DNA from: Somniosus microcephalus
Taxonomy: Eukaryota
Assembly: GCA_052327205.1 (NCBI GenBank)
Contig: CM126211.1
Span: 153,264,001 to 153,328,000, forward strand
Length of the DNA stretch: 64,000 nucleotides
Reading direction: 5' to 3'
The notes beneath the pieces were generated by a model that was given only the letters and a program-made list of their open reading frames with translations, did not search any database and was not told where the DNA came from. Below, piece by piece: positions 1,512 through 40,521 of this stretch. Both the position numbers and the translations under genes were made by a program. Positions within the stretch are counted from its first letter, which is position 1, and the number at the start of each line of letters is the position of its first letter.

Positions 1512-2963
1512 TCAAGATTCAAGATTCTTTTATTGCCATATGTAACTGGTACAATGGAATGCTTACTCCCCACTCACTCCCACAATATAAGTATAAATAT
1601 AAAAAACAAAAGTAACAATAAGCAAATAAGTATAGCAATGACAGTCCAAGTTGCAGGATATGATGAATAGTGCAAAAAGCCTCTATTACCACTGGAAGTA
1701 ATAGTAATGTAATATGATAAGTATATGGTAGTATAAGTATAATATAAATAAGTATAAGTTAAAATGCAGTGTGCAATGTACAAATGAGTTATAAGTTATA
1801 TAAGTTATAAATTAAGGTTGAGGTACAAGAATCCTATGTGCACACAGTCCAGTGATCAAGAATGTTCTTGTGTGCTCACGGTTCAAGTGATATACAGTTC
1901 CAGGGTGGGAGGGAGAATGTGACTATGGTATGTGGGGCAGTGCGGTTAGCAGTTCAGTAGGCGCACTGCCTGTGGGTAGAAACTGTTCTTGAGCCTGCTG
2001 GTCCTGGTTCGAATGCTGCGGTACCGATGACCGGACCACAGGAGGGAGAACAGTTCATGTCCAGGGTGATTGGGGTCCTGGATGATGGAGCGGGCCTTGT
2101 TCTGACACCTGGTCTGAAAGATCTCCTCGATGGACGAAAGTGCACACCCGATGATCTTTTCTGCCGTCCTCACAACCCTCTGGATGGATTTCCTGTCCTG
2201 TGCAGTGGTGTTACCATACCACACATTGACACCACCTGTCAGGACGCTCCCTATGGTGCCGCGGTAAAAGTTCACAAGCCACTGTGTGCTTATGCCGCAT
2301 TTCCTCAGGCACCGTAGAGGGTAGAGGCACTGGTGTGCCTTCTTCAGCACTGCCTCAGTGTTGTGATTCCAGGCCAGGTCATCAGAGATCTACAGTCCCA
2401 GGAATCAGAAGCAACTGACAACTTCCACTGGTGTCACATCTATGCTGATGGGGCAGTGGTTCCCTCGGTGGCTTCTGAAGTCCACAATGAGCTCCTTAGT
2501 CTTGTCAATGTTCAGGGCAAGATTGTTGTCATTGCACCATCTCATCAGCTGGACTATCTCATCTCTGTACTACATCTCTTCATAGTTGCTTATCAGGGCG
2601 ATTACTGTGGTGTCGTCGGCAAACTTGATGATCCGGTTGTTGCTGTGTATGGCTGTACAGTCATGTGTAAACAGAGAGTACAGCTGAGGACTGAGGCAGC
2701 AGCCTTGTGGCGTTCCGGTGTTGAGGACCAGAGTGGATGAGGTGTTGTTCCCTATTTTCACCACTTGAGGCCTGCCAGTCAGAAAATCCAGAATCCAATT
2801 GCAGATGGAGGTGCCCAGGCCTAGGTCCCTCAGTTTCAGGACCAGCTTGGAGGGAATAATAGTATTAAATGCAGAGCTGTAGTCAATGAACAACAGTCTG
2901 ACGTAGGTGTCCCTCCTGTCTAGATGTTCCAGGGCAGTGTGTAGTGTTAGGGAGATGGCGTCG
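1512..2963 (-). mobile_element. Rex1/Babar-type LINE, 5'-truncated, inserted in CR1
   Basis: RT peptides LFIDYSSAFNTI, GTPQGCCLSPQLYSLFTHDC, KFADDTT and C-terminal KKAHQCLYPLR...SFYPQAVRLLN. The 3' end has AATAAA and a short GAATCTT repeat tail near 1512-1535. Confidence 0.8.
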
Positions 2964-3630
2964 TCAACATGAAGATTAAAATATCCCATGATTATAGCCG
3001 TATCTTTCTTACAAGCCTCCATTATTTCTTGATTTACACTCTGTCCTACAGTGTGGGTACTGTTTGGGGGCCTGTAGACCACTCCCACCAGTGACTTCTT
3101 ACCCTTATTATTTCTTATCTCCACCCAAACTGATTCTACATCTTGATCTTCTAAGCCAAAATCATTTCTCACTACTGCACTGATCTCATCCCTTATTAAC
3201 AGAGCTACACCACCTACTTTTCCTTTCTGCCTATCCTTACGAAATGGAAAATATCCCTGACTATTCAGTTCCCAGCCTTGGTTACCTTGCAACCACGTCT
3301 CTGTAATGGCTATCAGATCATACCCATTTATTTCTATTTGTGCTGTCGACTCATCTATCTTGTTATGAATGCTGCGTGCATTCAGATATAGAGCTTTTAA
3401 TTTTGTTGTTTTATCATTTTTCCCTACTCTGACCCCTCTTTCTGATGCACTCTTATGTGTATACGCTCTGTCCCTTCCAGTCACACTCTGGTTATCATTA
3501 CCCCTATCACTACCCTGCACTTTTGCCATCTCATTTTTCTTTGACTTTTTACATTTCCGCTCAGCGGATCCCTCCCTCCCACTATTTAGTTTAAAGCCCT
3601 ATCTACAGCCCTAGTTATTCGATTTGCCGA
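2964..3630 (-). mobile_element. 5' part of the same CR1 (APE endonuclease N-terminus)
   Basis: LYLNARSI, IAITETWL, FRKDR..GGVALLI, VGVVYRPP. The sequence MGYFNLHVD joins to WTKQIG on the other side of the Rex insertion. Confidence 0.88.
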
Positions 3631-7345: not shown

Positions 7346-7549
7346 GGGGTTGAAATTCTGCTGAGCACTACGTTTAGCACGCACTTAATGTGCTCATGTA
7401 AAGTTCCTATCTACACTTTTTAACTAAGTCCTTTGCCCACTTCTTTTAAAAAGGTTAACAGTTTTGGTAAAATAGCTCACATAGGAATTTTAAACAAGCA
7501 TGATAAGCACGCTGCTAAAAAGAAATGTGCTCAGCAAAATTTCAACCCC
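7346..7549. mobile_element. Fold-back MITE, 204 bp
   Basis: Left ggggttgaaattctgctgagcac versus right gtgctcagcaaaatttcaacccc (22/23 inverted match); imperfect arms extend ~70 bp; flanks are TAT and TAA. Confidence 0.8.
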
Positions 7550-9964: not shown

Positions 9965-11215
9965 ATAGAGTCTTGGAGTCATAACGGCACAGAAGGAGGC
10001 CATTCAGCCCATCGAGTCGTGCCGGCTCTCTGTAGAGCAATCCAGTCAGTCCCATTCCCCCGCTCTATCCCCATAGCAAGTTTATTTCCCTCAAGTGCCT
10101 ATCCAGTCTCCCCTTGAAAACATTGAGGGGGAAAAATTCAGTTGGTTTGCGCCTCCCGTTAACGCCTTAAGAGGGCGCTAATGGGGGCGCAAAGCAACTA
10201 GCGCCTGTGCACGGCGATGTTTGCGCCGCTCACAAAATTAACTAGACATTTTGCGGTGGCGCTAAACACTACTGCCACGATCTCCTGCACCGGCAGATCG
10301 TGACATCAGTTGAGTGTGCAACGCCCCGGTAGCGCCCTGGACCGAATATTGAGTGGTGCCCCCTGCCTTACTGCCTGCCGCTAGCAACGACAGGTTGAGG
10401 GGAGCATTTTGCAGTTAGGAAGGGACTGGGGGAGCGCTATTTAAAGGTGAACGCTTCCTGCCTTTTTTTGTTGGTGACATTTTTGCACCACGCATTGAGA
10501 GAGAGAGAGACTTCTGGAGAGATTCAACGCTGTGTGAAGGAGTTTTTGGTACAGAGCAGCACTTTGCAGATTCATTTTGATTTGCCCTTCCTTGTATCGA
10601 TTTAGAAGAGACTGTGGGGGCTGCACTCTGAGCTCTTTCCCTGGTTCTCTCCATTGTTCTTTCCAGCAGATTTGATGTACAGGTCTCTCCAGGCCAAGAT
10701 TCCAGGCTGCAATGAGCAGGATGTGGATGGAGAGCAAGGTCAACCCTCCCCTTTAAGAACTGGCAGGTGCCATTGTGTCTGTGTTCCATTGCTGACTGAC
10801 ATCACATGAGCTTCGCCAGCGCTCTGAGGTAGCACCTCGCTCCTCGGCCTTTGCGCCTTAAGACAGGTGTGAAGCACTCCAATCACCTCCAGGGGCGATA
10901 AAAGCCAAGTTTGCAGTCGGAGGCGATAATTAGCGCCAGGCGCTAATCTTTGCGCCCGGCCGATAATTGCACCCCAAATGGGGCGATACTGAATTTCTCC
11001 CCCTGAGTGTCTCCGCTTCCATCACTTCCGTTGGCAGCGCGTTCCAGGTCCTCACCACTCGCTGCATAAAGTTTTTCCTCACATCCCCCCTGTATCTTTT
11101 GCCCAAAATCTTAATTCTGTGTTCCCCTAGTCCTTGTACCATCAACTAGGGGGAACAGCCTTTCCCCGTCTAGCCTATCCAAACCCATCATAATCTTGTA
11201 CACCTCTATCAAATC
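9965..11215 (-). mobile_element. CR1 3' end split by the 10127-11003 element
   Basis: CR1 tail at ~9965-10126 resumes after 11006 (QRVVRTWNALPTEVMEAETL in ORF 10930-11145). Confidence 0.8.
10127..11003. mobile_element. Non-autonomous Harbinger derivative (877 bp)
   Basis: TIRs gggggaaaaattcagt (10127-10142) and actgaatttctccccc (10988-11003), 15/16 match. TGA is duplicated at 10124-10126 and 11004-11006. Both subterminal regions align by eye with 19328-23697. Confidence 0.9.
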
Positions 11216-11419: not shown

Positions 11420-12535
11420 TATATTAGCATGGATGGATAGAGAATTGGCTAACTAACAGAAAGCCGAGAGTCGAGATAAATGAGTAATTTTTCGGTTGGC
11501 AAACGGTAACTAGTGGGGTGCCACAGGGATCGGTGCTGGGGCCTCAACTATTTACAATCTACATTAATGACTTGGATGAAGGGACTGAGTGTAATGTAGC
11601 CAAGTTTGCAGATGATACAAAGATGGGTGGGAAAGCAAGTTGTGCAGAGGACTCAAAGAATCTGCAAAGGGATATAGACAGGCTAAGTGAGTGGGTAAAC
11701 ATTTGGCAGATGGAGTATAATATGGGAAAGTGCGAGGTTATCCACTTTGGCAGGAAAAATAAAAATTCAAATTATTATTTAAATGGAGAGAGATTACAAA
11801 ATGCTACTATTCAGAGGGACCTGGGGGTCCTTGTGCATGAAACACAAAAAGTTAGCATGCAGGTACAGCAAGTAATCAAAAAGACAAATGGAATGTTAGC
11901 CTTTATTTCAAGGGGGTTGGAGTATAAAAGCAGGGAAGTCCTACTACAACTGTACAGGGTGTTGGTGAGACCACACCTTGAGTACTGCGTACAGTTTTGG
12001 TCTCCTTATTTAAGGAAGGATATACTTGCATTGGAGGCAGTTCAGAGATGATTCACTAGGTTAATTCCAGAGATGAGGGGGTTGACTTATGAGGAAAGGT
12101 TGAGCAGGCTGGGCCTATACTCATCGGAATTTAGAAGAATGAGGGGTGATCTTATTGAAACATATAAGATACTGAGGGGGCTCGACAAGGTAGATGCAGA
12201 GAGGATGTTTCCCCTCGTGGGGAAATCTAGAACTCCAGGGCATAGTTTCAGAATAAAGGATCGCCCTTTTAGAACTGAAATGAAGGGGAATTTCTTCTCT
12301 CAGAGGGTCGTAAATCTTTGGAATTCTCTGTCGCAGAGAGCTGTGGTGGCGGGGTCATTAAATACATTTAAGGTGGAGATAGACAAATTTTTGCAAGATA
12401 AGGGAGTGAAGGGTTATGGGGAGCGGGCTGGGAAGTGGCTTTGAGCCCAAGATCAGCCATGATCTTATTGAATGGCAGAGCAGGCTCGAGGGGCCAAGTG
12501 GTTTATTCCTGCTCCTATTTCTTATGTTCTTATGT
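11420..12535 (+). mobile_element. CR1 LINE 3' portion (RT domain to tail)
   Basis: [39 protein letters not shown]; in-frame stop at 12049-12051; tail cctgctcctatttcttatgttcttatg. Confidence 0.92.
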
Positions 12536-14520: not shown

Positions 14521-15687
14521 ATTCATCTACCGATATCACTGGCAGTAATTTCTTTGTTATTGGGCCTGTGAAGATTGAAAGTTTTACAAGAAGCAGAATG
14601 ACATTATCGGGCAGGGAATAGGTAGGTGGGTTAAAGTGATTATTTAATGATAAAGAAAATTTTGATGTTTCACAGCATCAATGTGGTAAGAGTTTACATA
14701 GAATATGAGAATAAACTAGCAAGAAATATAAAAACAGGTTGCAAGTGTATAGAAAGGAAGAGATTAGCAAAAGTAAATGTGGGTTCCTTAGAGGCAGAGA
14801 CAGGAGAAATTATAATGGGGAGTATGGAAATGGCAATGATGTTAAGCAAATATTTTGTGTCTGTCTTCACAGTAGAATTCACAAAGAACATACCAGAAAT
14901 TGTGGGGAACCAAGGGGCTAATAAGAGTGAGGAACTTAAAGTCAAAGAAAAAGTACTGGAGAAATTAATGGGACTAAAAACTGATAAATCCCCTGGACCT
15001 GATGTCCTACACTCTAGGGTTTTAACAGAGGTAGTGGAGGCATTGGTTTTGATCTTCCAGAAATCCCTAGATTCTATAACAGTCCCCCCGTGGATTGGAA
15101 GGTAGCAAATGTAACCCGGCTATTCAAGAAAAGAGGTAGCGAGAAAACAGGGAACTACAGGCCAGTTAGCCTGACATCAATAGTAGGGAAAATGCTGGAA
15201 TCCATTATTAAAGAAGTGGTAACAGGGCACTTGGAAAATCACAATATGATTAGGCAGAGTCAACATGGTTTTATGAAAGGGAAATCGTGTTTGACAAATC
15301 TATTAGAGTTTTTTGAGTGTGTAACTAGCAAGGTAGATGGGGGGAACCAGTGGATGTAGTACATTTGGATTTTCAGAAGGCATTCGATAAGGTGTCACAC
15401 AAGAGGCTGTTACACAAAATTAGGGCTCATGGGATTGGGAGTAATATATTAGCATGGATTGAGGATTGGTTATTGGACAGAAAACAGAGAGTAGAAATAA
15501 ATGGGTGATTTTTGGGATGGCAAGGTGCAACTAGTGGGGTGCCGCAAGGATTACTGTTTGGGCCTCAGCTATTTACAATCTATATCAATGACTTAGATGT
15601 AGGGACTGAGTGTAATGTATCCAAGTTTGCTGATGATACAAAGCTAGGTGGGAAAGTAAGCTGTGAGGAGGGTGCAAAGAGGCTGTA

Positions 15688-16670: not shown

Positions 16671-17562
16671 GAGTTGACAAAGGGGTATAGACTGGTTAAG
16701 TGATTGGGCAAGAAGGTGGCAGATGGAGTATAATGTGGGGAAGTGTAGAATTATCCACTTTGTTAGGAAGAATGGAAAAGTAGAATATTTTTTAAAAGTT
16801 GAGAGACTCGTAAACGTTTGTATTCAGAGGGATTTGGGGGTCCTTGTACATGAAACGCAGAAAGTTAACATGCAGGTGCAGCAAGCAATTAGCAAGGAAA
16901 ATGGCATGTTAGCCTTTATCGCAATGGGGTTGGAGTACAAGAGTAAGGAAGTCTTGCTGCAATTGTACAGGGCTTTGTTGAGCCCACACCTGGAGTACTG
17001 TGCACAGTTTTTCTCTCCTTACCTAAGGAAGGATATACTTGCCTTAGAGGCAGTGCAACGAAGGTTCACTAGATCGATCCCTGGGATGAGAGGGCTGTCC
17101 TATGAGGAGAGATTGAGTAGATTGGGCCGATATTCTCTGGAGTTTAGAAGAATGAGAGGTGATCTCATTGAAACATATAAAATTCTGAGAGAGCTTGATA
17201 GAGTAGGTGCTGAGATGCTGTTTTCCCTGACTGGAGTCTAGAACTAGGGGTCATAGTCTCAGGTAAGGGGTCGGCCATTTAGGACTGAGATGAGGAGAAA
17301 TTCCTTCACTCAGAGGGTGATGAATCTTTGGAATTCTCTACCCCAGAGGGCTGTGGATGCTCAGTCATTGAGTATATTCAACAACAACAACAAGTATATT
17401 CAAGAATGAGATCGCTACATCTTTGGACACTAAGTGACTCAAGGGATATGGGGATAGGACGGGAAAGTGGAGTTGATGTAGAAGGGCAGCCATGATCTTA
17501 AGGAATGGCGGAGCGGGCTCAAAGGGCCGTATGGCCTACTCCTGCTCCTACTTCTTATGTTT

Positions 17563-18300: not shown

Positions 18301-19838
18301 TTTCTTTAAAGGAGCTTCTGTAGGAACTGAAACAAAGCAGCAAAGCTTGCACCTCATTGTTGAGTGAAGTTAGAAGAATGGAGCAAGTATTGGGCCCTCA
18401 TCCATCCAGACCCTCTGGCAGATCTTCCTTGTTTTTTCTCCTTTATTCACTGTGTGGCTGTGATTCATCCTTTCATTTTAACAGCACCAGGCAATAGTTT
18501 GAGGGGTTTTCCACAGGGCATTTTGTATAAAAGTTGACGGCTCCAAGTATCAACTTTGAAAATATTAACTAATCCTCTTCCAGAAAAACAACTTATTTTA
18601 AAATTATATTTGTGGTTGCATTTAGAAGGTTAGCTTCATAAACACAAATCCCACACTGATGGCTTTTTATTAGGGTATATGATCCCGCTTACCAGTCAAA
18701 AGGATCACTGGTTAGCTTCTACTCTGCTGATCCCCAGTGTGACTGAAACTATTTGGACTCAGAGTACCTGGGTGAGAAACAAAGAGGAGATTTATATTTT
18801 AGCTATTGGCCTGAGAGGAATATAAACATCTTGCAATCTCAGTACATATAATTAAGGTTTGAGTAAGTTTATAAAGTGCCCAAGATCTCCAAAGAAGCTT
18901 GAGAGCATTTTAAAACCGGTTTGACACCACAGTGGAGTTATACTCCATGTAGTGTCAAATCCAGGCAGCATGTGACAGCCTCTTCCAGGGGACTTCCACA
19001 ACTCCCCTCCAGGTTCAGGTTGGGACTTAACAGGTGAGTTATAAGGAGTGATTTTAACTCTGCTTGCCAGGTGAGCAGTTAAAATCACCTGGGGGGACAT
19101 ACTGCTGATGTCCAGTGCTCTTTCCGCAGGCTTCAAAATTTAACCTGCTCTTCTGAGCAGGTGAGAAGGACACACGCTGGAAACAAGTGGGGTCCTTCTT
19201 TAAATATGCAGATCTGGGGCCCAATTGCTATTTTAACCAATGACCTGAGGAGGGAAGTTGTTGTGCTTTCCCACCGAATCAACCTAGCAGGAAGAAGAGT
19301 CAGGCCAGAAGAGGCTCAAAGAAGTAAGGCCTAGAAATTCAGTTGTTTGCGCCAGCCGCTAGCGCCTTAGGAGGAGGAGAAGTGGGGCGCTAAGCGGCTA
19401 GCGCCCGGGCGCGGCGCGATCTGCGCCTCTCGTGAACTTCAGTTAAGATTTAGCGGTGGCGCAAAACCTTTGCGCGCGCTCAGCTGCGCACGCAGATCCT
19501 GACATCATTTCATGGTGCAACACCCTTTGTGCGCCCCGAACCGGAAATTCAGTGGCGCCGGCCTATTGTGCGCCTGGCGCCCCTAGCGACTGGTAGAGGG
19601 GAACGGTTCCCAGTCGCTGCAAGGCGCGGGGGGCGCAAATTAAAGGGGACTCCTCCTGCAGTATAAATGGCAGCCATTTTGCACCACTCCTTCTTTGTGA
19701 GAGACGGATCTTTGGAGAGAGACAAAGGTAGAGAGCTTTCTGGTTTGGCTCAACACTCGCACAGTTACTTGTGGCTTCAGGCCACAGCTTTGCAGTTGTC
19801 TTTAACTTCAGTGTCATAGCATTGATTGGAAACATATA

Positions 19839-20957
19839 ATGGGGGCTGCAATGGGTGGAAACGTTGGGCTTCTCCATTGTATTCAAAGGGCTCAGAGACG
19901 CCGTGAGAGAGTGCCAGTCATGGCCAGACGGAGAAGGGCCAACAGGCGTCGGCAAAGGAGGCCTTACCCACCCAGGGTATACCGCCAGCAGTTCTCATAT
20001 CTGAACATATCTGAGGAGCAGTGTGTTCGGAGGCTGCAATTCAGAAGGGCGGTGGTCACTGAGACCTGCCACCTGCTTCGCGGAGATCTGCAGCCACAGC
20101 TGAGGAGCAGGACGTCTCTGTCGGTGGCAGTGAAGGTGACAGTGGCTCTCAACTTCTATGCCACCGGCTCCTTCCAATCCGCTACTGGGGACATTTCCAA
20201 CATCTCCCAGTTTGCGGTACATTGCTGTATCCGCCAGGTGACCAATGCCCTTTTCAGAAGGAGACGTCAGTTCATCTCCTTCCCCATGACCGTTGACAAG
20301 CAGCAAGAGCACGCAATGGGCTTTGCAGCATTAGCGGGCTTCCCCATGGTGCAGGGCGCCATTGACTGCATGCATGTGGCTTTGCGGGCACCTCTAGAGA
20401 ATGCCGAGGATTACCGCAACCGGAAGGGCTACCATTCGCTCAACGTGCAATTGGTGTGTGACCACAGGCAGCTCATCCTAGCTGTCAATGCCTGCTTTCC
20501 AGGCAGCAGCCACGATGCCTTCATCCTGCGCCAGACTTTTGTGGCAGACATGTTCGAGGCCCAGCCTCACCCACGAGGATGGCTACTCGGGGTCAAAAGC
20601 TATCCTTTGTGCACCTGGCTGATGACCCCGCTCCATGCGCCCAGCACCCCTGCTGAAGAGGGATACAATGACAGCCATCAAGCAACCAGGAACATCATTG
20701 AGCAAACAATCGGCATGCTGAAGCAACGGTTCCACTGTCTGGATCGTTCCGGGGGAGCCCTACAGTACTCGCCTGAGCGAGTCTCCGATTTCGTTGTCGT
20801 GTGCTGCATGCTGCACAACCTGGCTCTCCGCGGGACTCAGCCACTGCCAGCAGACATTGGAGGACCACCGGAGGAGGAGGAGGAGAAGGACCAGCACAGG
20901 AGGGAGGCAGAAAGTGCAAGGGCCGCCCGTCGGCGGCTTATTGCAAGTCGGTTCTAG
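19839..20957 (+). CDS. Harbinger (HARBI1-like, DDE_Tnp_4 type) transposase, 372 aa; probably catalytically dead
   Basis: ALNFYATGSFQ, GAIDCMH (D176), NRKGYHSLNVQLVCD, FPGSSHDAFIL (D226), WLLGVKSYP (V252 where GDxGY is expected), RNIIEQTIGMLKQRF (E288), CCMLHN. Confidence 0.92.
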   Translation: MGAAMGGNVGLLHCIQRAQRRRERVPVMARRRRANRRRQRRPYPPRVYRQQFSYLNISEEQCVRRLQFRRAVVTETCHLLRGDLQPQLRSRTSLSVAVKVTVALNFYATGSFQSATGDISNISQFAVHCCIRQVTNALFRRRRQFISFPMTVDKQQEHAMGFAALAGFPMVQGAIDCMHVALRAPLENAEDYRNRKGYHSLNVQLVCDHRQLILAVNACFPGSSHDAFILRQTFVADMFEAQPHPRGWLLGVKSYPLCTWLMTPLHAPSTPAEEGYNDSHQATRNIIEQTIGMLKQRFHCLDRSGGALQYSPERVSDFVVVCCMLHNLALRGTQPLPADIGGPPEEEEEKDQHRREAESARAARRRLIASRF

Positions 20958-21151
20958 GCCCCTCTCAGGGAATGGCTTGTGCCAATGGCAGAAGATGAAT
21001 GTAGCCGCTCCACAAGCCCTCAGCCAAGCAGGGCAACCAGGACTTCCAAAAGAAAGCATGGACAGTGCGATTTAAGAATTTTTTTTACTGTGATACCTCT
21101 GTGCCCTTCCCACATGACAAACTAATGGAGAGAACCCCCCCCCCAAAACAC

Positions 21152-21348
21152 AAATACACCAGTCTCGGCCTTTACAATTAAAACAAATATACCAGTCTCG
21201 GCCTTTAAATATGAAACAAATACAGCAGTCTCGGCCTTTATATATGAAACAAATACAGCAGTCTCGGCCTTTATATATGAAACAAATACAGCAGTCTCGG
21301 CCTTTATATATGAAAAAATACACCAGTCTCGACCTTTATATATAAAAC
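21152..21348. repeat. 33-bp tandem array, 6 copies, between the converging 3' ends of the two Harbinger genes
   Basis: Unit aaatacagcagtctcggcctttatatatgaaac; central copies are near-identical and outer copies diverged. Confidence 0.95.
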
Positions 21349-21368
21349 AAAACATTTGGCCACACCTT

Positions 21369-23336
21369 CTACTTTTTCCCCTGCGAGGGTGATCCGTTTC
21401 GCTTCCGTGACTGGCCCCTACCCGCCCTGCAGCTCCTCCTCAATGGGACCCCAGTGGCTGCAGCAAGGCTGGGGGAAGGCTGCTGAGGGTCAGATGGTGA
21501 GACGGCAGATGCCCTTGGGGGTCGGCCTGGACCAGCTCTGGGCCTAGAGGGGCCGGCTGCTGACTGCTCCAACTCTGCTTGGGCGGCAGCAGTCTGTCCA
21601 ACAGCTGGTGGCAGCTGCAATGGAGGAGTGACCGTGTTGGCTGCAGGAATGCTACCAACCTGACAGATCACAGGCACTCCCTGGTCGGCTGATACATTGG
21701 CACGCGCATGGGCCAGCACTGCAGCATGCGCAGCAATCTGCTGAGGCACAGACTGCTGGGCTGCTGCGGCACGGCGAGTGCCCCGGCGATGCCTGGCCGA
21801 TCCAGCGAGTATGGCAGCAGTTAGTGCCCGTGTGCCTCTTGTCTGTGTCTGCATGACAGCAGCCAGTGAATGCACGGCACGACTGAGCACTTGGCTAGAA
21901 GCCGCCTGTGAAGCAGCGAAGTCCTGCTGACTCCTAGCCTGTGCTGCCGCGATGTCCTGCAGACTCCTGGCCTGTGCTGCACTTAATTGTTGCAGACTCC
22001 TGGCCTGTGCTGCACTGAATTGTTGCAGACTCCTGGCCTGTGCTGCCGCGACGTCCTGCAGACTCCTGGCCTGTGCTGCCCCGAATTCCTGCACACTCCT
22101 TGCCAGTGACTTTATGGAGTCAGGCATCCTTGCCACTGCAGCCATGAGCTCAGTGTGCCTGCGCTCAGCCTGGGCGCCCATTTCCGCTAGGAGCCGCACC
22201 TCCTCTGTGCTCACCGTAGCAGGACTGGAGGCCGCACTCACCCTCCGGGGAGAAGGCCGCCGAGCTTCCCCACCCCTCCCGCGTTGCTGCAGCCTGCTGG
22301 TCCCCAGAGCTTCACTATCCTCTGACCCTTCCCCCCTGCTCCCCTCCAGGGAAGACGTGTCACCATCATGGCCATGGGCTGCCTCAGCTGAGGGTGTCCC
22401 TGATGGGCTGGCTTCCTCTTCCTTCTCCTCTATGTCTGACTCGGACACAGTACCAGCTTGAGGGGCCACCTCCTCACCTGGCGAGTCACCATCTGAAAGC
22501 AGGGAGGCACAAGAGTTGCTTTAGAGTGAGGACAGGGCGGCAGCGAGGGAGGCATGAGTGCTGCTGTGCACTGCATTGGTTCGATAGTGGCAAAGGATGC
22601 TGGTGTGAGGCGCAAGTGGAAAGGGAGAGGTCAAAAAGGTGATGACCTTACCATTGGTTCCCAGAACAGGGTCAGCATCTCCAGTGGCGATGGGGCCACT
22701 CAGCCGGCCTGCCATGATCCGCTCCACTCGCTGCTCGAGGTCGCTCAGCTGTTTCAGGTCAGGACGGCCTCCCCCAGTCTGTCGCTGCTGTCTTCTGTTA
22801 TGCGCCAGCTTGGCCTGCAAGAGAAAGGACAGCCTCTAAGTACAGTGTCAAGCCCTGATCTTGCCCGCACTGCCTCCCATGGCCGATTAGCCCTGACAGT
22901 GTCAAGCCCTGATCTTGCCCGCACTGCCTCCCATGGTCGAATAGCCCTGACAGTGTCTAAAGTCCTGAATGCGCAAGTGCTTTTCATGACAGTCCCATAG
23001 CTGCTGGATGAGGGCTGGCCATTAGGGCTTTCAGACCCGTTTGGCCATAAAGTGAGGTGCACATGCAGGGATGAGGAGGATACTGGAAAGGGTACTCACC
23101 CTGACAACCCGAGTGAGGTCGTTGAATTTTTTCCAGCACTGGGTTGGTGTCCTGCCAACCACGCTGTTGGACGTGATCCTGTTTGCCACATCCCTCCATG
23201 CTTTCCGATATTTGGCGGGCAGCAGCCTCCTGCCACCCTCAGGGAAGAGGATATGGCACCTGCGGTCCACTGTGCCAACCAGCAGCCTCAGGTCACCCTC
23301 GCCGAAGCGCTGCGCTCTCTCCCTGGCCTTCTCCAT
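21369..23336 (-). CDS. Harbinger Myb/SANT-like DNA-binding partner, 3 exons (23336-23100, 22814-22652, 22492-21369), 507 aa predicted
   Basis: Exon 1: MEKARERAQRFGEGDLRLLV...KAWRDVANRI...RTPTQCWKKFNDL (Myb/SANT trihelix). Exon 2: RRQQRQTGGG...LSDLEQRV. Donors GTGAGT and GTAAG, acceptors ttctcttgcAG and gctttcAG; phases 0 and 1 keep one open frame of 1524 nt. Confidence 0.85.
21901..22108 (-). repeat. Coding 33-bp repeat (11-aa unit AAQARSLQxxx), about 6 copies
   Basis: Core gcagactcctggcctgtgctgc recurs every 33 bp on the + strand. Confidence 0.92.
22842..22967. repeat. 54-bp tandem duplication (about 2.3 copies) in intron 1 of the Myb gene
   Basis: acagtgtcaagccctgatcttgcccgcactgcctcccatgg... 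starts at 22842 and 22896, with a partial copy at 22950. Confidence 0.92.
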
Positions 23337-24390
23337 TCTCCTGGGCGTGGAGCTGTTCCAGAAGCAGTGTTCAGGCCTTGCCTTAGGGCTGCAGTGTGCA
23401 GGGCGTGGCAGCCAAGCAATTCCACCCTCCCCCTTTAAGTGCTGACCGGCGCCTGACTGTCTGCCCTCAATGAGCAACTCGCCGCACCTGCGCTGCGCCC
23501 GCCTTCGGTGTTTGCGCCCTGGATCGCCGGCTTGGCGCCTAATGATAGTCGTGCATCGCCTGCTTTAGCGCAGCAGCAACCTCTTGGGGCGATGCAACTG
23601 AATATCGGCGAAGGTGGCGCTAAGTTGCGCCGGGCGCAAAAGTTAGCAAACGCCATGCTGTAGCACCCCAAACGTGGCTATACTGAATTTCTAAGCCTAA
23701 GTCTTTTTAACTTTTTTTTTTACTTCCCTTGTGGGAATGCTCCTCTGGGCCCCACAACAAAGGTTTAGGCCTCTGCTGCCCTGGGCTCACCTCCCCAACC
23801 GCCCTCCCCCACCCCACCCCACCCTATCACAAGGCACTTCCAAAACCTCCTCCGCACGACTTACCTGAGCATCTGGGACTGTTGTTACGGTCACTGCCGA
23901 TGACCTCCTGCCGCCTGGCACTGCATCCCCACTGGCCGGCCAGTTGTCACTTCCTGAGGGTTACGGATGGGAAACTGACCGGGGGCATGCAGATGAGGCC
24001 CAGGAGTTAAAATCGCCCAGGTGTCATGCTGCTGAGATCAGGATGGTTTACCACCCACCTCGGCTGCGCTGGCCTGATTCCTGCACCAAGTTAAAATCAA
24101 CGTTAAGGTGTCACTTTTGTGTTACTGCAAAGCAGAACATTTTCACAGCAACACTAAAGTTGCCATATAAATGCCTCCTAAAGTTCCTAAATGCAGTCTA
24201 GTGTGTTTCCTCCTCAAGTTACATTTTGCTCTTTAAAGTGACACTCAGCTCTCATGTAAGAACTGTATGAAAATACACTGGCACTAATTTTAAATGATTT
24301 CTATAGAGACTAGCATTCATAAACATCATGTAGCCCATACCATTACAGAACCATCTCTGCAGAAAAATTAACTGCATAAGTCAAACAATG

Positions 24391-24930
24391 GGGATTGATT
24401 TTAACTCGGGCAGGATCAGTGCGTGGGTGGGCCTGACCCGGGCGGTGCACCCGAGCGTTATGAAGGAAATGAGGGCCAGCCGATTGTACTGGCTGGGCCA
24501 CATTTACATTTTTTAAATCAGTCTCTGCGGGAGGGATCGGGAATTGGGGCAGAAGCTGGTTGCCGAGCTGATGATGGTTGTGGGAGGGAGAGGTAAGCCT
24601 GGGGCTTGGGCGGCATGGGGGCAGCACTCCTGCTCCTCCTAGCCCACAAGGACTCCACATAAAATTTTAAAATTTTAACTTACCTTGGCCTCTTCTGCCC
24701 ACCATGACTTTCGGCATAATTTGGCCCCATGCAGATCTCCCGTGTGCTGAAGTTAAAATGCTGTCTTTTAGATTTATAGATTTAAATTAGGCCCCCGCCT
24801 GCCTGAAGCAGGAGCCTTGGCCGACTTCAAACTCGACAAAAATAAAATGTCACCAGGCGGAAAGGGCCGATAAGTAGATTCTGAATATTTTAACCCCTAC
24901 CAGGTGGGGGCTGGAGTTAAAATCAATCCC
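24391..24930. mobile_element. MITE, ~540 bp, with perfect 17-bp TIRs
   Basis: gggattgattttaactc (24391-24407) and gagttaaaatcaatccc (24914-24930). Confidence 0.85.
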
Positions 24931-25052: not shown

Positions 25053-25771
25053 CAGACCTGGAAAAACTACTCACAGATACAAAAAAAACACATCCCGAAT
25101 TCAAACTGGCAAAGATGGAAGAGAAACGGCACAAAGCACATGTGAACACTAACTAAAACCTAGAGGCACATGCTTAACAAAGATCGAAATAACATAGAAA
25201 GGTACAATACACAAGGACATTGTTGGGAACAAAGTATGAACATACAAATCACATCACTCATGAGTCATAGCTCAGTTACACAAAGCACGTAGTATGATGT
25301 ACAAAACCATTTGAATCATTCTTGTACACACAATGGAAGGAAACATTTAAGTATAAAGATGCACCATCGAGAAACATTAAAAATGAATCAGTACAACCAT
25401 GAGACACATAGAGGAACAAACAAGACAAATACATAACTGCCCATATATCGTCCCACACACACATACACATACAATAGTCTCACAGTCACACACATACATA
25501 AGCAGAGACAAACATTACTGTGATTACTGTTATATAAATAATTAACATAAGGTATATTTTAAATAGGTGAACATCTCTGTTAAAATAGCAGAGTGTGATT
25601 TAACATGATCCTGTATCACTCACAATAGTTTTCAGGCTATAATCTCACACATATATACACGATCACACATGTAAAATCACACATATACATAAACAGATGC
25701 ACATAGGCAGACACATACAGCCACATATTATCACACAATCAATCATAAATAGCCACATACGCAAACACATA

Positions 25772-26483
25772 GGCCTGGAATTTCCTGGAAAGTTTTAGTG
25801 TAACTGTAGAGTAAGAGTGGAGTTGCACGTTTCTTCCGAGGAAATTGCCCACAACTGATTTACTCTGGATTTACGCTGAAACATCACTACACATAAAGTT
25901 CCTCAACCATTTGCACAATCTGCCGAACCCCCACTTAGCTCATTAACGTAACTCCGCACCACCATGCATAAGACCTGGGAATGCAAGTTTCAGTGCATTT
26001 AATCCAGTTCCAAGCAGGTGTAAATTTACACCCAAATTTTAGGCGCAACACAACTCGAAGTACTATTCCTGGTGTTTTATAGTGATTATTTTGTTTTAGC
26101 AATTTTGTAAATTTCTCCTTGCTGAGACCTGCACTGTATTTTTTATAATGCTTCATTTATGGCATCAGAATCTGTTACATTTAAAAAAGTAAAACTTCCA
26201 CAATTGCATTTTCTTAAACATGTTGTTCTAATGTCCATAAATGATACTTTGTTTCAAACTTTAATTTTTGTAACATCAATAAGATAATGAGGGACTTAAA
26301 GAAGATGGATGGTGTATGTTCCGCACTTTCCTTGGGCCCTGATGTTTATGCAGATTTCCGCTTATTTTACGCCAGTATTTTATCCTGATAATTCTCAGGA
26401 AATTTCAGCATAAGTTTGGCAAAGAAAACAGCATAGATTTTGGTATAATTTCGGCATAAATCAAATTGAGTAAATTCCGGACA
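25772..26483. mobile_element. Old MITE-like element
   Basis: Degenerate termini ggcctggaatttcc and gtaaattccggac interrupt the CA-rich tract. Confidence 0.45.
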
Positions 26484-39348: not shown

Positions 39349-40521
39349 ATGGCGACAGCGACGTCCAATCCCTACATGCCGAGCAATAGCATCCTGTCGT
39401 CCAACTCTATCGTGCACAGCGACTCAGGCGGCATGCAGCAGGCGACCACGTACCGGGATCCCTCGAAAATGGTGCAAAGCGACTTCATGCAGGGGGCCAT
39501 CGCCAGCAACGGCCACATGCTCAGCCATGCACACCAGTGGGTGACGGCGCTGCCGCACACCGATGCCGGCTCGCCCTGGTCCTCGGCCATGTCCGGCAGC
39601 CCCTTGGGTCAGCAGCAGCAGCAACAGCAGCAGCAGCAACAGGACGTGAAGCCGTCGGTGCAGGTCGTGGGCCGGGACGAACTGCACACGGGAGCGGCTC
39701 CTCTCCATCACCACCGCCCGCCTCACCTGCCTCCTCACCAGCCGTCTCACGGCGGCCACCCGACCGCCTGGGGGGCGACCACCACGGCTCACATGCCTTC
39801 CATGGGCTCGGCCGTGCAGCCGCTCATCTACTCGCAGCCCGGGTTCACCGTCAACGGCATGCTGAGTCAGGCGGGAGGGCAGAGCCTGCACCCGGGGCTG
39901 AGGGACACGCCGGAGCTGGTGGACCACGGGCAGCAGCACCACAGCCACGACCACTCGGACGAGGACACGCCGACCTCGGACGACCTGGAGCAATTCGCCA
40001 AGCAGTTCAAGCAGAGGAGGATCAAGCTGGGCTTCACCCAGGCTGACGTGGGCTTGGCGCTGGGCACCCTCTACGGCAACGTCTTCTCCCAGACCACCAT
40101 CTGCCGGTTCGAGGCGTTGCAGCTGAGCTTTAAAAATATGTGCAAACTCAAGCCCCTGCTGAACAAGTGGCTGGAGGAGGCCGACTCGTCGACCGGCAGC
40201 CCCACCAGCATCGACAAAATCGCTGCTCAGGGGAGGAAGAGAAAGAAGCGCACCTCCATCGAGGTGAGCGTGAAAGGAGCGCTGGAGAGCCATTTCTTGA
40301 AATGTCCCAAGCCCTCGGCGCAGGAGATCACCTCCCTGGCAGACAGCCTTCAGTTGGAAAAAGAAGTTGTCCGGGTTTGGTTCTGCAATCGGAGGCAGAA
40401 AGAGAAACGCATGACGCCGCCGGGAGGAGTGCAGCAGACGGACGATGTGTACTCACAGGTCGGCAATGTAAACGCCGACACACCGCCCTCTCACCACGGA
40501 CTACAAACCGCCGTGCAGTGA
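39349..40521 (+). CDS. POU3F3: POU class 3 homeobox 3 (Brn-1), 390 aa, intronless ORF
   Basis: Complete POU-specific domain ([24 protein letters not shown]) and POU homeodomain ([15 protein letters not shown]). POU3F3-type termini: MATAx[47 protein letters not shown]. Kozak context gccATGG. Confidence 0.95.

Follow-up and report, generated by a model that had tools for sequence, protein, structure and literature searches.

When a two-gene transposon is found with both reading frames still open, the question arises whether it is a live element or an ordinary passenger of the genome in which it lies. The Harbinger copy considered here spans positions 19328-23697 (4,370 bases) of the window, the whole stretch of 64,000 nucleotides that was analysed. 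In a preliminary description it was presented as a complete two-gene Harbinger with terminal inverted repeats (TIRs), a TAA duplication, a transposase ORF and a Myb/SANT gene, and every coordinate given for these features holds. The reading that is strongly favored is that the copy stems from a very abundant Harbinger family and was inserted at full length, that in this copy a catalytic aspartate of the transposase has been replaced by valine, and that it is likely unable to cut by its own means and likely decaying neutrally. The element is of a known kind, and this copy is likely dead and likely no more than an ordinary passenger.

The ends of the element are genuine and do not represent a chance repeat. 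The left TIR (16 nt, 19328-19343, plus strand) and the right TIR (23682-23697, minus strand) pair at 15 of 16 bases, and they are flanked by TAA target-site duplications at 19325-19327 and 23698-23700. Public sequencing runs were aligned to positions 18700-24400; 11 of 17 candidate runs, from 5 studies, contain the stretch or part of it, and four of the 17 were used, namely X1 and X4 (DNA) and X16 and X17 (RNA). In X1, the summed contig depth rises from 2,262 (19082-19272) to 988,092 (19273-19463) at the left edge and is down to 1,512 at 23857-24047 on the right. At exactly 19328, 289 reads of X17 leave the element and diverge into mixed flanks. In addition, X1 holds both element junctions without difference at depths of 18.8 and 26.3, which is near the flank depth, and no exact empty-site joint is present among the joints listed for this run, which may be the window's own source. 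The contigs of X4 do not extend over the flanks. A chance TIR or an assembly artefact is ruled out by the depth step and the junction contigs. Between the two stop codons lies a 33-nt tandem repeat (21117-21350) whose unit count differs among copies (joints 21172-21347, 21206-21347 and 21205-21145).

The element landed inside an older, MITE-like host repeat (19039-24100, of which about 19039-19327 and 23701-24100 are host sequence), as the flanks, when joined, match the reverse strand of a MITE at 24391-24930 in an alignment that spans the junction (66% identity, score 69, shuffle maximum 32). In this diverged paralog of the host MITE, a single GTAAGT was seen by eye near the junction. A related non-autonomous element of 877 nt, with the same TIR core and a TGA duplication, is found at 10127-11003; its identity to the main element amounts to 70% for the 5' end of the latter and 68% for the 3' end. 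Further along, the POU3F3 coding sequence (39349-40521, plus strand) is 96% identical to a POU3F3-like protein of the bamboo shark (Chiloscyllium) over residues 1-200, compared with 60% for the next match. Its ATG at 39349 lies 15,652 bases past the element end, in agreement with the distance of about 15 kb reported before, and the chondrichthyan host proposed earlier is borne out by the POU3F3 identity and by transposase matches that are nearly all from sharks and rays. An exact-sequence look-up in the protein collection returned no entry for the POU protein or for the transposase. Exaptation of the element near POU3F3 was considered and set aside, with nothing in its support and no functional link seen.

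The transposase is encoded on the plus strand by an intronless ORF of 372 aa (19839-20957), which runs without interruption, as had been described, and matches Pfam DDE_Tnp_4 with an E value of 5.8e-34. The nearest proteins are nearly all from sharks and rays, the best match being P0001 (68% over 82% of the transposase), a model from Pristiophorus japonicus named 'putative nuclease HARBI1'. A PDB search by sequence returned a single, non-significant match (E 0.55), and Foldseek returned none at E 0.001 or better, its weak top rows including the Mos1, piggyBac and ISCth4 transposases.

The triad positions of the window copy are D176, V252 and E288, in the motifs GAID176, G-V252-KSY and IIE288; the corresponding marks in Fig S3 of Han 2015 (PMC4482050, accessible parts) are GAID, GDxGY and IE. 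In an AlphaFold model (pLDDT 83), residue 176 lies in a strand, residue 252 just past a strand and residue 288 in a helix, which is the layout of the triad given in the accessible text of the same paper. Codon 252 (20592-20594, plus strand) encodes valine at the position of the second D in that figure, where the family, according to the variant at base 20593, has its second catalytic aspartate. Among 120 homologs, this column holds aspartate in 94 and valine in 1. At base 20593, the letter for aspartate accounts for 630,198 of 630,346 units of depth in X1 and for all 34,125 in X4, i.e., at least 99.97% of the DNA depth in both, and it is found in all mapped RNA reads (443 of 443 in X16 and 567 of 567 in X17), indicating that the lesion is private to the window copy. 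The family triad is D-D-E and that of the window copy is D-V-E. The adjoining substitution G254S also departs from the family majority. The replacement at residue 252 had been overlooked in the preliminary description, and it leaves the intact copy that the open frames implied there unsupported. In the accessible parts of the work on the Ping transposase, excision needs both element proteins, and the DDE mutation D295A lowers it about 150-fold (PMC2836001). By comparison with Ping, D252V would abolish function, and the window copy probably lacks the ability to cut on its own.

The family to which the copy belongs is very abundant, likely with thousands of copies. On the aligned stretch, X1 gave 66,449 contigs, of which 10,054 are at least 99% alike, 21,880 are 95-99%, 29,240 are 90-95% and 5,275 are 88-90%. 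In X1, bins on the element have depths from 95,000 to 2.6 million, and those on the flanks have 12-23. These figures are summed contig depth and not copy number, and overlapping short contigs may inflate them up to about 30-fold; even so, for the transposase region, we infer a thousand copies or more. In X4, which carries another organism label, the same likeness classes hold 2,166, 3,628, 4,696 and 978 contigs, and the majority letters agree among X1, X4 and the RNA runs, which carry a third label. The like spread and the shared majority letters across organism labels indicate that the expansion likely predates their split. The element had been called young, a claim that stands only in a relative sense, given at least 39 positions off the family majority and a spread of likeness common to two organism labels.

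These differences were counted in the best 40 of 1057 variant rows, of which the row at 24240, lying in the flank, was left out; of the 39 kept, a few (19814, 20294 and 22306) are mixed among copies and not private in the strict sense. The best-supported 40 rows include 27 coding differences, 17 non-synonymous and 10 synonymous, and about 70% non-synonymous changes would be expected under a neutral model (P 0.25, in a small, support-ranked sample of low power). The listed coding changes of the window copy therefore look neutral. The chance that no stop codon arises after 27-53 substitutions is 0.42-0.18 (indels not counted), which means that, given the size of the family, chance would leave both frames open in many of its members. 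At this divergence, both open frames require no selection.

Shortened relatives of the element are also found. Joints from 21158-21173 to 23417 suggest derivatives that keep the transposase and are without the Myb gene, and joints from 20357/20358 to 23363/23371 suggest shorter ones. Most copies retain the full DDE triad, and transposase-strand reads are 3- to 5-fold enriched in X16 and X17, provided that both libraries have the customary strandedness. A more far-reaching proposal to which these two observations would lend themselves, that the family ranks among the largest Harbinger expansions in a fish genome, still mobile in living sharks and driving the formation of transposase-only derivatives and MITEs, is regarded as unlikely. 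An active family would keep producing new insertions in a shark genome.

The second gene lies on the minus strand and is convergent with the transposase ORF. Exon 1 (23100-23336) has 79 codons and carries the Myb/SANT domain, with a match to Pfam PF13873 (Myb_DNA-bind_5; E 5.5e-7, 29.9 bits against a cut-off of 21.7). A word-indexed search of exon 1 against longer proteins returned nothing, whereas a full HMMER scan found 31 homologs. Intron 1 (22815-23099) is a predicted GT-AG intron of 285 nt in which 54 nt are duplicated in tandem (22842-22949), and it is followed by exon 2 (22652-22814, 163 nt), placed by homology, and by a predicted GT-AG intron 2 of 159 nt (22493-22651), placed by scoring splice models against the homologs. 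Exon 3 with the stop codon (21369-22492) contains, at about 21871-22134, a 33-nt repeat that stays in frame (11 aa), and its alignment with P0133 reaches model residue 493. Joined by GT-AG rules (23336-23100, 22814-22652 and 22492-21369), the predicted exons give 507 aa without a stop, and the product aligns with the sawshark protein P0133 over residues 2-493 (36%, E 9e-79).

The splicing of this gene is a prediction, and the probability that it is wrong in detail, with other splice sites in use and a family product different from the 507 aa, is considered low. Of the 3094 GT-AG combinations tried, 240 are open past 400 aa, so an open frame by itself is weak evidence for the gene model. The runner-up for intron 2 also scores close to the chosen one (3183 vs 3228). 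Neither of the predicted joints, 23100/22814 and 22652/22492, is among the best 15 of 142 joints in the two RNA runs, for which the tissue is unspecified and of which 24% and 31% were read. On the other hand, the three-segment model proposed earlier has the top score among the 240, whether summed over 10 homologs or taken for P0133 alone, and on this basis of homology to shark proteins it is upheld. Of 32 homologs, 19 show no gap at junction 1, whereas the other 13 have one nearby. Moreover, reads of related copies lose their match at 23094, directly behind the 6-nt donor GTGAGT (126 reads in X16 and 138 in X17), which suggests conservation of the intron 1 donor in an otherwise drifting intron.

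Against the splice model, the RNA depth on intron 1 equals that on exon 1, and both strands are represented among the reads. The aligned records of the two runs number 11,694 (of 16.7 million) and 17,789 (of 14.4 million), of which only 201 and 356, respectively, are at least 99% alike. This RNA looks like read-through of many copies for the greater part.

That the window copy is instead a young, competent autonomous element, as the preliminary description implied, with V252 either a sequencing error or tolerated, is judged very improbable. Its frames, TIRs and target-site duplication are intact, and two intact ORFs are the criterion for a 'potential active' element in the accessible parts of Han 2015 (PMC4482050). 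An error at this codon could in principle have entered during assembly: the window's letter at 20593 is unconfirmed by any listed contig, and the 148 remaining depth units in X1 cover all non-aspartate letters, without valine being singled out. However, four of the five listed X1 flank or junction contigs (records 1, 2, 6 and 7) have 0 differences, the fifth (record 8) having 4, indicating that the assembly is accurate nearby. V252 is also one of at least 39 positions off the family majority, with G254S adjoining it, and a tolerated change is at odds with the crippling effect of a DDE mutation on the Ping transposase (PMC2836001, accessible parts). 'Two intact ORFs', as a literature criterion for potential activity, can thus mislabel a dead copy.

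The last reading considered is domestication, in which the dead transposase and its Myb partner would persist near POU3F3 as a pair with a regulatory role, in the manner of HARBI1 and NAIF1. In a quick tree of 57 rows (the window protein and 56 of the 120 matches, chosen by rank, length and taxon), which gives coarse placement only, several short-branched, cross-species clades of shark and ray transposases have broken triads, indicating that domestication does happen in this lineage. Although these clades and a dead triad with both frames open would fit such a fate, we give it the least credence, as the TIRs and target-site duplication are retained in a multi-copy family, the listed private changes fit neutrality in the low-power comparison given above, the window protein joins transposon-like sawshark copies (support 89) outside the cross-species clades, and none of 1,010 RNA reads at 20593 carries the window letter (RNA from organism B, which may lack the insertion).

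The favored reading, a full-length insertion with a lost catalytic aspartate, can be placed in the route known for Harbingers. In the accessible parts of the literature, TIR binding and import of the transposase are tasks of the Myb-like protein, and neither protein can be dispensed with (PMC9179366, PMC9392472, PMC2836001). By analogy, the spliced Myb/SANT protein of this family would bind the element ends and carry the transposase into the nucleus, where the DDE triad would hold the metals needed to excise the element and to insert it into a TAA site, with duplication of that site. The window copy may have been inserted by this route inside the older MITE and would have gathered its private substitutions afterwards, including the one in the triad by which the catalytic aspartate was lost. 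With its ends intact, it could likely still be moved by a working sister copy that supplies transposase. The locus is a clean structural example of a two-gene Harbinger of elasmobranchs, with its ends, target site and exon-intron layout, and its importance is modest.

Compared with known systems, this is at family level a PIF/Harbinger (PHIS superfamily) element of cartilaginous fish. All family-level features tested are present: short TIRs starting with G or A, TAA as a TWA duplication at the one site seen, a DDE_Tnp_4 transposase with D-D-E in the family majority, a second ORF with Myb/SANT, and a dispersed multi-copy repeat with fixed ends. The intact triad of an autonomous copy is lacking in the window copy (V252). 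In the accessible parts of Han 2015 (PMC4482050), the PIF/Harbinger group likewise has a TWA duplication, TIRs under 60 bp starting with G and two ORFs, with a mean length of about 4,124 bp versus 4,370 here, whereas the D-V-E triad sets the window copy apart. A term search of the accessible text of three supplements of that paper found no shark family, with Callorhinchus in the genome list only.

The element may belong either to this group or to NuwaII (e.g., NuwaII-4_XTro), as covered in the same source. A G comes after the duplicated TNA at each of the two sites seen, which read G|TAA|G at the main element and T|TGA|G at the related MITE, and the GG ends and the 23-residue spacer before the second D are also alike. 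By eye, about half of 92 block positions in Fig S3 are identical between NuwaII-4_XTro and the window transposase. Unlike in the NuwaII target C|TNA|G, the 5' C is found at neither of the two sites. By eye, NuwaI-2_DRer is about as good a match as NuwaII, in a figure without rows of the PIF/Harbinger group (PMC4482050). NuwaI was rejected: its duplication is CWG and the target site here is TAA.

For cartilaginous fishes, the available part of Etchegaray 2022 states that Harbingers were not found in the elephant shark and suggests other members of the group for checking. In the whale shark and grey reef shark genome papers, as far as these were accessible, Harbinger/Tourist is listed only as a repeat class. 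A described shark Harbinger family was not found in the accessible literature, with subscription journals, Repbase Reports and shark-genome supplements outside its scope. RefSeq and UniRef hold many shark gene models of both genes. Dfam holds uncurated shark consensus sets. The nearest proteins, P0001 and P0133, are Pristiophorus japonicus models with automatic, uncurated names and belong to different families at the DNA level. If the large, mobile family considered above were real, it would be a described active two-gene Harbinger for cartilaginous fishes and would answer the question raised by the absence from the elephant shark.

Among the vertebrate elements, Harbinger3_DR of zebrafish shares the two-protein design and is the model for cooperation between Myb protein and transposase; according to the accessible parts of PMC2836001 and PMC9392472, it has already been reconstructed and moves in human cells, so that reviving a vertebrate Harbinger would be no first. 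Harbinger-Snek of sea kraits is alike in that it has expanded to a very large size and comprises full copies along with solo-ORF variants and short derivatives. In the accessible text on that family (PMC8437027), it was horizontally acquired and makes up 8-12% of the genome, whereas the nearest proteins here come from other sharks and rays, which suggests a long residence in the shark and ray lineage. Finally, HARBI1 and NAIF1/MSANTD derive from the same two gene types and, in the accessible parts of PMC9392472, are syntenic host genes of jawed vertebrates; a domesticated gene of this kind is single-copy and has lost its ends, whereas the window element is multi-copy and has kept them.

In a coarse tree of the window transposase and 56 of its 120 matches, proteins resembling Harbinger transposases form five clades with short branches, and every one of these contains at least two shark or ray genera. 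Based on this tree and on sequence clusters, these clades consist of the homologous proteins P0004/P0006, P0005/P0008/P0010/P0012/P0015/P0016, P0013/P0017, P0018/P0019/P0057 and P0029/P0030, respectively. Three of the five are limited to sharks alone or to rays alone, and in the tree the catalytic DDE triad is broken in most of them. These clades are candidates for several domesticated elasmobranch transposase genes. In a literature search on HARBI1 in sharks, no paper on these clades appeared among the results listed. In the same tree, one lungfish and one caecilian transposase-like protein (P0069 and P0082) form a joint clade with a support of 100. An intact triad is missing from both, and this clade could possibly represent an old domesticated gene.

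A Myb-like protein, represented by P0132, P0134, P0137 and one sequence cluster, is at least 90% conserved among several ray genera and is akin to the second (Myb/SANT) gene of the main Harbinger element. A close relative is carried by Heptranchias, and the Myb-like protein is likely the product of a domesticated gene.

In the window, joints from 21158-21173 to 23417 were found at a depth of 87-300 in the DNA run X1 and in a few reads in both RNA runs (X16 and X17), which points to a derivative of approximately 2.1 kb that has kept the transposase and lacks the Myb gene. A non-autonomous relative of 877 nt with a TGA duplication (10127-11003) sits within other repeat DNA. Further short Harbinger/Tourist-like elements with G-rich inverted ends were recognized by eye at 7346-7549, 24391-24930 and ~25762-26480, with decayed or indistinct target duplications. 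Upstream of the transposase, at 19661-19685, a TATA-like word is followed by GCCATTTT, a YY1-like motif. By eye, a stretch near 10440-10490 in the related MITE resembles this region. Open fragments resembling LINE (CR1/L2-type) reverse transcriptase or endonuclease, also identified by eye, are present at 938-1573, 2570-3598, 11488-12051, 14635-15105 and 16678-17241, which is nothing unusual in a shark genome.

The valine at the second catalytic position of the window copy (V252) is also found in P0032, a Heterodontus protein from an unrelated Harbinger lineage, where it is likely an independent change.
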